Shown: piece after piece, positions 39,117-41,607 of the stretch | Numbering within the stretch: the stretch's first letter is position 1 | How the letters are laid out: the number at the start of each line of letters is the position of its first letter | NCBI GenBank assembly: GCA_017860255.1 | Contig: JAFNAR010000007.1 | Coordinates: forward strand, 153-64,152 | Reading direction: 5' to 3' | Origin: Bacteroidota bacterium | GTDB lineage: Bacteria > Bacteroidota > Bacteroidia > Bacteroidales > P3 | Length of the DNA stretch: 64,000 nucleotides | Made by a program: the position numbers and the translations under genes | Notes under the pieces: generated by a model | The model's database searches: none | What the model saw: the letters and a program-made list of their open reading frames with translations, nothing else | What the model was told of the DNA's origin: nothing

Positions 39117-39137
39117 TCGTCCGAACATAGCGTTACA
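39117..39137 (+). repeat. Left inverted repeat of IS-like remnant (tcgtccgaacatagcgttaca)
   Basis: 16 of 21 positions match the reverse complement of 41587..41607 (tcgtcaggaataagcgttaca). Lies 14 nt upstream of the transposase-fragment ATG. Confidence 0.5.
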
Positions 39138-39151
39138 CAAAAAGTAATAAT

Positions 39152-39313
39152 ATGAAAGAACACATTAAATCAAAGTATGTTAAGCGTACTCAAAAGGATT
39201 ATTCGATGTCCTTAAAATTACAAATTGTATCAGAAATAGAACAAGGGATTCTAACAAGACGAGAAGCCCAAATTCGTTATGGGATACAAGGAGGAGACAG
39301 TTACATAGAATAG
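39152..39313 (+). pseudogene. Truncated transposase N-terminal helix-turn-helix fragment (IS3-like OrfA type)
   Basis: 53-codon ORF, not in the track: MKEHIKSKYVKRTQKDYSMSLKLQIVSEIEQGILTRREAQIRYGIQGGDSYIE. The KRT.KDYS.S.KL.IV.E.E.G.L....A...YGIQG pattern is typical of Bacteroidota IS OrfA HTH proteins. It ends 4 nt before the convergent methyltransferase stop, and no catalytic domain follows. Confidence 0.55.
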
Positions 39314-39317
39314 TACA

Positions 39318-40202
39318 TTATTTTAATCGTTCAATTTTCATTGATTTAAATTTATAATTGCAAACATTTTCTTTCATCAATTTATATTTTTCTAAATCCA
39401 AATACTGCTCAATAAATGGTAAATCTGGAGCATAATGAAAACTTCCTCCTATCTTCAAGGAATTCAAAATATCCATATATTTTTTAGCATAATCAATAAA
39501 GTTTCCATCGTTTCTAAAATGGTGATGTTGAAAATGATTTGAAAAACCAAGATTACTTGTTATAGTACCCCATTTTTCTCTTTCAAATTTATATTCAAAC
39601 CAATCTGAATTAATGAGAAATGAATTTTTATATGCAAATCTATCAAAGCCATAAGCTTCAATACCCTTTTGACGTAAATACAATACTAAATCACCTTTTC
39701 TTCCACATCCAATATCCAAAACTGGTTCAATTATATTGTCAATGTCAATCTGTAAAATTTTTATCTGCAATTCTGGACTGTATTCTGAACATACAACAGA
39801 TTGAATCAACTCTTCTTTTGAATTATAAATTTTTTCTGCAAATGAGTTGGTTTCCTGCAAACATTTTATCAAATTATCATAGTGCTTTGTTGCTATAAGA
39901 TTTATTGAATCTTCATGATTCTTTATATTTGTAAATAAATCAACATACAAATTTCTCAACATTATCTTTGCTTGATTATCAAAGGTGTAATATTGATTAA
40001 TCTTACAGAACTCTTGTATAGCTCTATTTGTTAAATAATCAATCAACAAATTTTCTGATTCACTATCAATTAAATCTATATCTTTAATTGCATCTAATGT
40101 TTCTTTACTAAATCTTAATGAATTTAGAATTCCATTATTAAATAGGTTTTTACCTTGATTAAATTCAAACTGTTGATCTATATTATCTTGATAAATTTTC
40201 AT
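39318..40202 (-). CDS. Class I SAM-dependent methyltransferase (substrate unknown)
   Basis: 294 aa. Motif I VLDIGCGRKGDLVLYLRQKGIEAYGFD in the C-terminal half. The ~150-aa N-terminal region has no recognisable motif. Confidence 0.6.
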   Translation of the reverse strand: MKIYQDNIDQQFEFNQGKNLFNNGILNSLRFSKETLDAIKDIDLIDSESENLLIDYLTNRAIQEFCKINQYYTFDNQAKIMLRNLYVDLFTNIKNHEDSINLIATKHYDNLIKCLQETNSFAEKIYNSKEELIQSVVCSEYSPELQIKILQIDIDNIIEPVLDIGCGRKGDLVLYLRQKGIEAYGFDRFAYKNSFLINSDWFEYKFEREKWGTITSNLGFSNHFQHHHFRNDGNFIDYAKKYMDILNSLKIGGSFHYAPDLPFIEQYLDLEKYKLMKENVCNYKFKSMKIERLK

Positions 40203-40376
40203 TTAAAATCTTTTACTGCAAAAACTTATGTTTTGATTATATATTGCATATATACATAAAGGAATAAATATATCTACAAAATCTCATATAATATCCAAAT
40301 TATTTTCTATTCAATACCTATTTACCTTAATTTAATACAACAAAAAATATTTTATCTCCTAAAACCTTATATGACT

Positions 40377-40766
40377 TCAATTATCAGAAGCAATTAACTC
40401 TATTTTATTATTATCTGGGTCGAGTATTACACTTTCATAACAATAATCACCTGTTGTTCTTGGATAACTATAAATAATTACACCTGATTCATCTAAATAT
40501 TTTGTAAATTCATCTACATCTTCTTTCTTTCCTACTACAATTGCAAAATGAGCTAATCCTATCCTTTCTTTATCAATTCTTTCTTTGATATCATATCTTT
40601 TCATTATTTCTATTCTTGCTCCATCTATAAAGTATAAAAAATATGAAGAAAATTGTTTTTTTATATTTTCATACTTATCAGATGCTTTACAATTAAAATA
40701 TTGTAAGTAAAAATCTTTCAGTCTTTCTAAATCATTTGTCCAAATTGCTATATGGTCTATATACAT
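40377..40766 (-). CDS. VOC (glyoxalase/bleomycin resistance/dioxygenase) family protein
   Basis: 129 aa. MYIDHIAIWTNDLERLKDFY...LAHFAIVV...E.VILDPDNNKIEL is the typical paired beta-alpha-beta-beta-beta VOC pattern. Confidence 0.7.
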   Translation of the reverse strand: MYIDHIAIWTNDLERLKDFYLQYFNCKASDKYENIKKQFSSYFLYFIDGARIEIMKRYDIKERIDKERIGLAHFAIVVGKKEDVDEFTKYLDESGVIIYSYPRTTGDYCYESVILDPDNNKIELIASDN

Positions 40767-41398
40767 AATTTTGGTCTTCTCTTAATCAATTCAATTATTT
40801 CTTGTTTGTTTGCATTCATCAATATTGGAATATTCTTTTTAATTTCTTCTTCTCTCATATCCCACCATTTTAATTCTTCTAATAATTCTATGGTTTCTTC
40901 ATCAAATCTTTTTCTTATTAACTTGGAAGGGACTCCTCCTACTACTTCATATGGCTTCACATCTTTTGTAACTACTGCTCTTGTTGCGATTATTGCTCCA
41001 TCCCCAACCTTTACTCCAGACATAATTATAGCTTCACATCCTATCCAAACATCATTTCCTATTATTATATCACCTTTATTATCCCATGAATCATTAATTT
41101 TCAAATCATTATTCCACATATCATTAAAAATAGAAAATGGATAATTAACAAAACTTTTGGATTTATGATTACCACCATTAAAAAGAAACTTAGCACCCGA
41201 TGCTATTGAACAAAATTTACCTATAATTAATTTATCATTATTTATAGTAGGATAATGATACAAAATATTTTTTTCTTCAAATTTTAATGGGTCATTAAAG
41301 TCATGATAGTAAGTATAATCACCTACTATTATATTATCATTATTAATTATTTCCTTTAATAAACAAGTCTGTTTATCATTTGGTCTTGGAAAAATCAT
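40757..41398 (-). CDS. vat: Vat-family streptogramin A O-acetyltransferase (xenobiotic acyltransferase, hexapeptide repeat)
   Basis: ILYHYPTINNDKLIIGKFCSIASG...NH....F.NYPF...GDIIIGNDVWIGCEAIIMSGVKVGDGAIIATRAVVTKDVKPYEVVGGVPSKLIRKRFDEETIELLEELKWWD is collinear with Vat(D)/SatA-type proteins as I recall them. The start is set at the ATG at 41398 (the track uses a GTG at 41443). Confidence 0.8.
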   Translation of the reverse strand: MIFPRPNDKQTCLLKEIINNDNIIVGDYTYYHDFNDPLKFEEKNILYHYPTINNDKLIIGKFCSIASGAKFLFNGGNHKSKSFVNYPFSIFNDMWNNDLKINDSWDNKGDIIIGNDVWIGCEAIIMSGVKVGDGAIIATRAVVTKDVKPYEVVGGVPSKLIRKRFDEETIELLEELKWWDMREEEIKKNIPILMNANKQEIIELIKRRPKLCI

Positions 41399-41524
41399 AT
41401 TAGTATCCTTATTTTTTATATTGAATTCATTTAAATTAATCACAATGCAAAATTAGTAATTTATTTTTGAACAGAATAAAAATATTTCTTTTGTCATTTA
41501 TTTAATTATTATCTTGTTCTAATT

Positions 41525-41596
41525 AAGCGTTACATATTTCACAATTATTTTCTTGGATAAAGTTATGAAAAAATAACTGTGAAATATGTAACGCTT
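41525..41596. repeat. MITE-like palindrome: 19-bp perfect inverted repeat (aagcgttacatatttcaca) with 34-nt spacer
   Basis: 41525..41543 is the exact reverse complement of 41578..41596. The match extends to 24 of 25 positions. The right arm overlaps the outer IR at 41587..41607. Confidence 0.7.
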
Positions 41597-41607
41597 ATTC
41601 CTGACGA
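41587..41607 (-). repeat. Right inverted repeat of IS-like remnant
   Basis: The reverse complement tcgtcaggaataagcgttaca matches 39117..39137 at 16 of 21 positions, including an identical 8-nt agcgttaca-type inner core and an identical 5-nt tcgtc outer end. Confidence 0.5.

Follow-up and report, generated by a model that had tools for sequence, protein, structure and literature searches.

A probable decayed IS3-family derivative with three passenger genes in an uncultured Bacteroidales bacterium

[quoted passage not shown] As points of comparison we use the IS231-derived MIC231 of Bacillus cereus, the qnrS2 MIC of Aeromonas plasmids and the Tn3-derived MICs of Xanthomonas, along with composite transposons, those flanked by MITEs included. 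The locus compared with them here is a three-gene block of ~2.5 kb that has a housekeeping gene on either side and belongs to an uncultured Bacteroidales bacterium, in a stretch of 64,000 nucleotides (nt), hereafter the window, from Bacteroidota bacterium (Bacteroidales; P3; assembly GCA_017860255.1, contig JAFNAR010000007.1, positions 153-64,152 of the forward strand). A preliminary description of this DNA took the block for a decayed IS or composite-transposon-like insertion, and this is supported by an empty site in the closest relative found (L097) and by ends that belong to the IS3 family. We consider it likely that positions 39113-41611 represent a decayed, non-autonomous IS3-family derivative, in which IS ends enclose three passenger genes and no transposase gene, in the terminology of ISfinder a MIC, perhaps one built as a mini composite element.

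The empty site and the IS3-family ends

Relatives were sought by a synteny scan of a genome collection using the DUF4301 neighbour, by protein searches with the flanking genes and by a metagenome scan with NA37. The collection was uninformative, as relatives in it reach 52% or less and only L007 keeps the order glmS-DUF4301-M23, with a different gene after it. The metagenome scan gave L097, an 801-kb contig and the closest relative found, with amino acid (aa) identities of 99% (glmS), 99% (NA37), 96% (DUF4301), 94% (M23) and 93% (p98). By blastn, window positions 38000-39105 correspond to L097 8708-7600 and positions 41615-44196 to L097 7592-5014, both at 94-95% nt identity, and L097, in the order M23, terminator, p98 and NA37, is without exactly 39106-41614, which runs from the outer tip of one terminal repeat to that of the other (E1 and E3, described below). 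We detected no scar, solo inverted repeat or residual sequence at this empty site. Because L097 lacks exactly the stretch between the E1 and E3 tips, we favour insertion, and the borders given by this comparison (39106-41614) are those we use for it. Only in this lineage was the block inserted, its target being the spacer of ~130 bp that separates the M23 peptidase terminator from the p98 promoter region. That terminator, a bidirectional hairpin of the M23/LysM peptidase gene (39069-39104; a perfect 18+18 nt inverted repeat with A- and T-runs on either side), is kept in L097, L091, L098, L099 and L092 and is the final sequence common to all relatives before the insertion; the left repeat comes just after it.

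Three further relatives, L091, L098 and L099, are likewise without the insertion, and in L091 (M23 92%, NA37 97% aa identity) the M23 terminator directly abuts the NA37 stop codon. This locus first suggested an insertion that included p98, a lysine-rich secreted protein of 98 aa encoded on the plus strand to the right of the block (41733-42029), an option which is ruled out by the residence of p98 in L097 and in the more distant L100 (62% aa identity), in both of which it adjoins NA37. Thus p98 is to be read as a resident gene of the right flank, outside the element, that was lost in the lineage of L091, L098 and L099. At L091 8400-8445 and the equivalent positions of L098 and L099, p98 and its flanks (about 0.55 kb) are missing, and M23 and NA37, which converge, there have a single bidirectional terminator between them, whose hairpin directly meets the NA37 stop codon.

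A comparison with syntenic genomes had been proposed in the preliminary description, and in none of the relatives are the three genes found here free of IS traces; L097, L091, L098 and L099 lack the block altogether. That the cassette is instead ancestral here and has disappeared from L097 and the remaining relatives through precise excision or recombination with an empty-site allele, is to our minds very improbable. Precise excision is possible for IS3-type elements, and several lineages show rearrangements past the M23 terminator, but all four close relatives are without the cassette, the L097 site is clean, the cargo has the lowest GC content in the window with modules that occur in unrelated contexts elsewhere (see below), and a single gain is more parsimonious.

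As for the ends, positions 39117-39137 read tcgtccgaacatagcgttaca, and the reverse complement of 41587-41607, tcgtcaggaataagcgttaca, is identical to it at 16/21 positions. When re-read from the sequence, this inverted pair lay where it had originally been placed and its outer 5 nt were identical as described, but the inner identical run measures 9 nt (AGCGTTACA) and not the 8 nt given before. The true ends are best taken as 25 bp long (39113-39137 and 41587-41611), that is, as extending four nt beyond the 21-nt repeat. They comprise E1, the left terminal inverted repeat (IRL; 39113-39137, plus strand, TGTCTCGTCCGAACATAGCGTTACA), and E3, the right one (IRR; 41587-41611, minus strand, TGTAACGCTTATTCCTGACGACTAA), which agree at 17/25 positions. 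E1, of the form TGTCTCGTCC...GTTACA, has in full what is expected of an IS3-family end, namely an inverted repeat of 20-40 bp with a 5'-TG tip. Five termini from unrelated loci, those of L002, L119 and L001 plus the IRL and IRR of an intact IS from Flammeovirga, match E1 at 19-22/25 and E3 at 15-18/25 positions, the Flammeovirga IRL agreeing with E3 at 18/25. On the contigs of the homologues the DNA 5' of orfA reads TGTCCCGTCCTGAAATAGCGATACA (L002) and TGTCTCGTCCTGAAATAACGATACA (L119), and at each IS copy compared the TG tip is preceded by unrelated flanking DNA. The outer tip of E3 lies within 3 nt of the point where L097 homology resumes, and the 64 kb contain the 9-mer AGCGTTACA only three times, each time inside the element, against 0.09 occurrences expected.

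The intact relative is an annotated IS on plasmid p1 of Flammeovirga kamogawensis (NZ_CP076130.1, about 320,920-322,301; 'transposase' plus 'IS3 family transposase'). It is 1,382 bp long, encodes an OrfA of 142 aa and an OrfB of 285 aa, has 25-bp inverted repeats with canonical TG...CA tips (IRL, TGTCTCGTCCTGAATTAGTGTTACA; IRR, reverse-complemented, TGTCTAGTCCGTCCATAGCGTTACA) and carries TTA at either border as its 3-bp target duplication. E1 resembles its IRL at 20/25 and its IRR at 22/25 positions, the spacing from IRL to the orfA start is equal in the two elements and the OrfA N-termini are homologous; unlike it, the window element has lost the interior from orfA codon 48 to the IRR and holds 2.2 kb of unrelated genes instead. 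The copy in L002 extends into OrfB with rve domains, which match NCBIfam NF033516 (transpos_IS3) at 8e-43. No intact copy of the IS is present in the 64-kb window. Among the four other copies examined in detail three are degenerate: in L002 (4966-6298) orfA is interrupted by an in-frame TAA and orfB is broken, L001 (1-590) is an internal-deletion derivative that fuses the 5' end of orfA to the 3' end of orfB, and L119 (2993-3225) is an IRL-orfA stub beside a phage-integrase fragment.

What is left of the transposase genes in the window is a 53-codon open reading frame (ORF) on the plus strand (39152-39313), which starts 14 nt past the left repeat and stops 4 nt short of the end of the next gene (39318), just as it had been placed before. 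Its previous reading as the helix-turn-helix (HTH) N-terminus of an OrfA holds for codons 1-48 (to about 39295), where it is homologous to IS3-family OrfA proteins, whereas the last five codons and the stop are not. A protein search gave 31 homologues at 51-69% identity with a common motif YVKRTQKDYSMSLKLQIV...YGIQ, all of them 32-89 aa long, partly since contigs end inside the repeat, and longer OrfA homologues match HTH_28 and positions 2-71 of NF033516 (transpos_IS3). Using all frames of L001 and L002 (OrfA and OrfB) in tblastn, we found only the orfA stub in the whole window, and no orfB or 3' remnant of orfA. Hence, of the arrangement seen in autonomous IS3-family elements, orfA followed by an orfB with a DDE/rve domain, only codons 1-48 of orfA remain.

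The cassette is carried by three assemblies, the metagenome-assembled genome (MAG) contig at NCBI, an ENA assembly and a Logan assembly, which are 100% identical over the region they share; because of this identity and the near-equal length of the first two, they probably go back to the same data. An assembly chimera is unlikely because both junctions converge on one identical empty-site position. The Logan assembly of run SRR10861756 breaks at 39098 and 39217 (the ends of L003 and L005), on either side of the IRL and the 5' region of orfA, which faintly suggests that this segment is repeated or polymorphic in that community.

The insertion site itself, position 39105/39106 just after the M23 terminator, is a breakpoint in every comparison. 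In L092 (11038-13371) the terminator is followed by 2.3 kb of unrelated small ORFs and then by an oxaloacetate-decarboxylase/TerC cluster, to which it passes directly in L096 (11056-11661); in the window this cluster (57776-64000) is found at a distance of 18.7 kb. Compared with window positions 16827-22846, L092 has inversions as well.

Mosaic cargo, possible traces of earlier events and rival histories

Downstream of the ORF lie three minus-strand genes, for a methyltransferase, a VOC protein and a Vat-like acetyltransferase, the last two overlapping by 10 nt (ATGTATATAG); here our re-reading and the original one coincide. Because of this overlap the VOC and Vat-like genes are likely to be co-transcribed. 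At 24.6-25.9% GC the cassette genes rank below every other long ORF of the window, the 41 of which average 31.2 ± 2.5% (mean, sd) with a minimum of 26.2%, and this composition, together with the occurrence of the modules in other contexts elsewhere, bears out the view that the cargo is foreign to its flanks. The VOC-Vat pair with its upstream promoter region (40389-41501, minus strand) is 89.5% identical in nt to L086 9900-11028, the homology covering ~100 bp upstream of the Vat-like gene and ending at 40389 and 41501. In L086 the pair follows 2-oxoacid:ferredoxin oxidoreductase genes and shows no IS trace upstream; next to other Vat-like homologues the neighbour is not a VOC gene. The L086 operon (9900-11128; 90% and 85% aa identity for the Vat-like and VOC proteins) stands directly 3' of a terminator, and its contig ends 91 bp after VOC. 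For the methyltransferase gene, a homologue in L118 (80% nt identity) provides a third context, behind a different upstream gene. An IS21-family element (IstA/IstB) cuts that homologue short (L118 285-3155; 80% over the first 418 bp), a context which associates the methyltransferase family itself with mobile DNA. Since the Vat-VOC pair and the methyltransferase gene each occur separately in the contexts of other genomes, the cargo is a mosaic, and the cassette would have been assembled from at least two modules, the methyltransferase gene and the Vat-like/VOC operon with its own promoter. A candidate for the latter is the Bacteroidetes-type box TAATTTTG (41448-41455, minus strand), read from the sequence and conserved in L086, which fits TAnnTTTG, the -7 consensus of Bacteroidetes promoters. 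The three genes were also considered as a defence system and rejected as such, PADLOC giving no support, and no Rfam family accounts for the cassette region.

Between the Vat module and the right flank lies a probable third IS end, degenerate and oriented like the IRL (E2; 41510-41534, plus strand, TATCTTGTTCTAATTAAGCGTTACA), which starts 8 nt from the point where L086 homology ends, agrees with E1 at 18/25 positions and has three mismatches in its 10-nt tip, all of them G/C-to-A/T transitions. Together, E2 and E3 look like a MITE-like mini-element of 102 bp (41510-41611) that begins 8 nt past the Vat module. Their inner parts are held by a near-perfect palindrome (41524-41597) with 28-nt arms (41524-41551 and 41570-41597; 96% complementary) around an 18-nt spacer, such that it takes in the innermost 11 nt of the right IS end and E2 consists of a portion of its left arm and the 14 nt before it. 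As a DNA hairpin the palindrome has a predicted energy of -23.5 kcal/mol (z=-8.2). Since it has no counterpart in the intact Flammeovirga IS, the palindrome is not a normal part of this IS; further copies were found neither in the window nor in 121 fetched loci, plasmids or viral contigs. An identity as known RNA or terminator was rejected, with Rfam giving only sub-threshold miRNA-hairpin matches and no terminator being called.

On the other side of the cargo, exactly at the truncation point of orfA, is an IS-tip-like decamer in inverted orientation (39290-39299, minus strand, TGTCTCCTCC): read along orfA, the stub ends in GGAGGAGACA, which equals 9/10 of the IRR tip. Three sites within one mismatch of TGTCTCGTCC occur in the window against 0.73 expected, and the local alignment around 39290-39299 is weak in that 14/300 shuffles do as well. 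Directly behind GGAGGAGACA comes GTTACATA (the two spanning 39290-39307), the core common to E2 and E3. So the decamer is a candidate for the right tip of a 187-bp mini-unit (39113-39299), GGAGGAGACA-GTTACATA may be a junction of IS ends left by an earlier event, and it is possible, going by these short matches, that two IS-derived stubs in direct orientation flank the cargo.

According to the history we favour, the unit would have been assembled elsewhere, on a plasmid, an integrative and conjugative element (ICE) or another chromosome, by IS copies flanking or invading the cargo, and would then have moved here as one piece, with an OrfAB transposase supplied in trans from an intact copy. Its route would have been the copy-out/paste-in of IS3 elements, by which 3 bp of the target are duplicated. 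Later decay would have cost the right tip its terminal CA and blurred the duplication, and the unit is now probably immobile.

Several observations speak against this history. The last four nt of E3 are degenerate, CTAA instead of GACA (tip ...GACGACTAA), so the right tip is without the terminal CA, while the other termini examined, from four copies, end in ...ACA or ...TCA. E2 and E3 are only moderately like true ends, with p about 0.005 for the outer 16 nt of E2 and 0.02 for E3, given the 9-mer anchor. The target duplication is a further point. The L097 empty site reads ...ATCATAA|ATCAAACC, and against it no clean 3-bp duplication emerged under any of several right-end placements tried, in line with the earlier remark that none was evident: a 25-bp IRR leaves TAA and TCT as the flanks, and TAA stands on both sides (39110-39112 and 41609-41611) only if the right end is put at 41608, three nt short of the 25-bp IRR, which leaves an extra TCT relative to the empty site. 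In addition, the window has no intact IS copy, and plasmids, viral contigs and the 121 fetched loci hold no second site of the cassette, which is known from one independent copy only, so that movement as a unit is inferred from a single copy without a clean target duplication.

Some of these features would sit more easily with remodelling in situ, by which an intact IS3-family copy landed here and its interior, from orfA codon 49 to just inside the IRR, was later exchanged, either in a recombination with a different IS-flanked segment or by deletions that followed nested insertions, the cassette itself never having transposed. The borders would then equal IS tips as well, and a degenerate right tip would not matter. 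The cargo is mosaic with tight junctions (23 bp from the orfA break to the methyltransferase stop, 8 nt from the Vat module to E2), and the end-like pieces at 39290-39299 and 41510-41534, with the palindrome, look like scars of several events. We nonetheless judge this, the main rival, unlikely, since no fewer than three independent events would have to fall on a single IS copy, since no residue of orfB or of the 3' part of orfA is left, and since a simple insertion should have left a clean 3-bp duplication like that of the Flammeovirga copy, which is not seen.

Taken on its own, the bare repeat pair (16/21, or 17/25) also counts against us, being equalled or beaten in 251/300 shuffles of the 2.8-kb region, with the composition-weighted score of an inverted pair as the statistic, and a repeat finder lists 191 inverted pairs in ~3 kb, with the 16/21 pair not among the 25 longest. 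By this measure, three resident genes could simply lie beside an unrelated scrap of IS and between a chance inverted repeat of AT-rich DNA. We find this hardly credible: the 9-mer is far in excess of expectation, the repeats are homologous to real IS termini, in the comparison with L097 both tips mark the limits of the indel, and the empty-site comparison refutes the idea. Of the two outcomes that the preliminary description had named as telling against it, neither came about in full: the relatives examined do not have the three genes here free of IS traces, and the repeat, though insignificant by itself, does match the ends of an intact IS3-family element. Because the shuffles show the pair to be insignificant, we do not rest the case on the repeat alone; that the repeats are real follows from three lines, their homology to IS3-family termini, the empty site in the closest relative and the foreign, mosaic cargo. 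A decayed IS3-family derivative that probably arrived as a unit stays our preferred reading.

The passenger proteins

The Vat-like gene (40757-41398, minus strand) is predicted to encode a xenobiotic (hexapeptide-repeat) O-acetyltransferase of 213 aa. We prefer its start at ATG 41398 over the mechanical ORF start at GTG 41443 (228 aa) because homologues are 208-216 aa long, because L086 has an equivalent start (MIFPRP) and because of the position of the promoter box, the GTG being at or upstream of the likely transcription start which TAATTTTG implies. The protein aligns over its full length with VatA (4HUR, E=7e-54) and VatD (1KHR, E=5e-50), matches Hexapep (E=2e-9) and has the GxNH active-site motif aligned, GGNH compared with GANH in 4HUR, and so displays what a left-handed beta-helix acetyltransferase with a catalytic His in a GxNH motif is expected to have. 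Unlike Vat proteins and type B chloramphenicol acetyltransferases, however, it falls under both equivalog cut-offs, with 245.5 bits vs 300 for NF000311 (Vat_ABCDEFH) and 189 vs 350 for CatB, and every Vat(A-I) allele model leaves it far under the cut-off; the sources of its relatives call them 'CatB-related O-acetyltransferase' or 'virginiamycin A acetyltransferase'. The former label 'Vat acetyltransferase' thus stands as a family likeness and not as Vat proper, and we regard the enzyme as Vat-like rather than a demonstrated Vat. It probably O-acetylates a streptogramin-A-like or chloramphenicol-like compound, which would be a putative selectable function. To call the whole block a xenobiotic/antibiotic-modification cassette, as was done before, is plausible for this gene only and unsupported for the VOC and methyltransferase genes.

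The VOC gene (40377-40766, minus strand) is predicted to encode a glyoxalase-I-like protein of 129 aa, which matches PF00903 (E=2.7e-19; 70.2 bits vs a gathering threshold of 20.6) and has its best solved relative in 3E5D, an uncharacterised 'putative glyoxalase I' (E=3.5e-38). It scores far under every NCBIfam cut-off, those of the Fos families included. A role as fosfomycin-resistance enzyme was rejected, as FosA, FosX and related models give 18-23 bits vs cut-offs of 170-305.

The third gene (39318-40202, minus strand) is predicted, from motif I, its fold and weak Pfam and NCBIfam matches, to encode a class I S-adenosylmethionine (SAM)-dependent methyltransferase of 294 aa, with an N-terminal helical domain of about 140 aa followed by a Rossmann-fold domain. 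Motif I (VLDIGCG) is part of VLDIGCGRKGD, in which D163 and G165 are invariant in 48 homologues. The family, 668 clusters at 50% identity of proteins about 300 aa long, is uncurated, and no curated Pfam or NCBIfam family exceeds its cut-off with this protein. In the AlphaFold2 model (pLDDT 95.6) the helical N-terminal domain remains unmatched, and Foldseek gives generic SAM methyltransferases at E~1e-5 as well as MnmM, Trm11, Bud23 and PmtA with probability 1.0 and TM scores of 0.3-0.37, over the C-terminal half only. As modelled, the C-terminal half has a generic class I SAM-methyltransferase fold, and beyond this generic fold neither the sequence search of the PDB nor the fold search returned a specific function.

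Relation to known mobile cassettes

The case leaves our knowledge of how IS elements or MICs work unchanged and is a fairly ordinary gene capture by a mobile element, which will not surprise the specialist. Its value is that of a well-delimited capture of genes by IS ends in the chromosome of an uncultured Bacteroidales bacterium for which an empty-site comparator exists. It also shows that IS remnants ignored by annotation pipelines, here solo ends and an ORF of 53 codons, delimit acquired DNA, that the site after the terminator of convergent genes is a recurrent target of rearrangement in this clade, and that Vat-like/XAT genes of environmental anaerobes on IS-bounded units are candidates for mobilisation. 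More tentatively, and with greater doubt than conviction, one might envisage that Bacteroidota IS3-family elements yield transposase-less cassettes that are still moved in trans and shuttle Vat-like operons among uncultured Bacteroidales of anaerobic digesters; if true, this would be an unrecognised route for the spread of streptogramin or phenicol resistance. It is speculative, too, that the 48-codon OrfA HTH stub and the 28-nt palindrome are functional, the one as a transposition repressor and the other as a transposase-binding or regulatory site, and not debris.

Measured against described systems, the window element differs from the MICs named at the outset in that its ends are of the IS3 family, that it has kept a 48-codon stub of orfA, and that its right tip is degenerate, its target duplication unclear and its copy number one; an IS3-derived MIC did not come up in the literature, which we did not search systematically for one. 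With MICs it shares what sets them apart, IS-type inverted repeats around passenger gene(s) and no transposase gene, both of which were found here, and with the qnrS2 MIC, whose MITE accompanies a resistance gene, it shares the presence of a mini-element (E2-E3) by its Vat-like gene. Unlike a composite transposon it has no complete IS on either side but at most a tentative 187-bp stub (39113-39299) and a 102-bp mini-element (41510-41611). It would nevertheless resemble composite transposons, those flanked by MITEs in particular, in having its cargo between two IS-derived units in direct orientation, the E1-orfA' stub and E2-E3, with the outermost ends delimiting the inserted segment.

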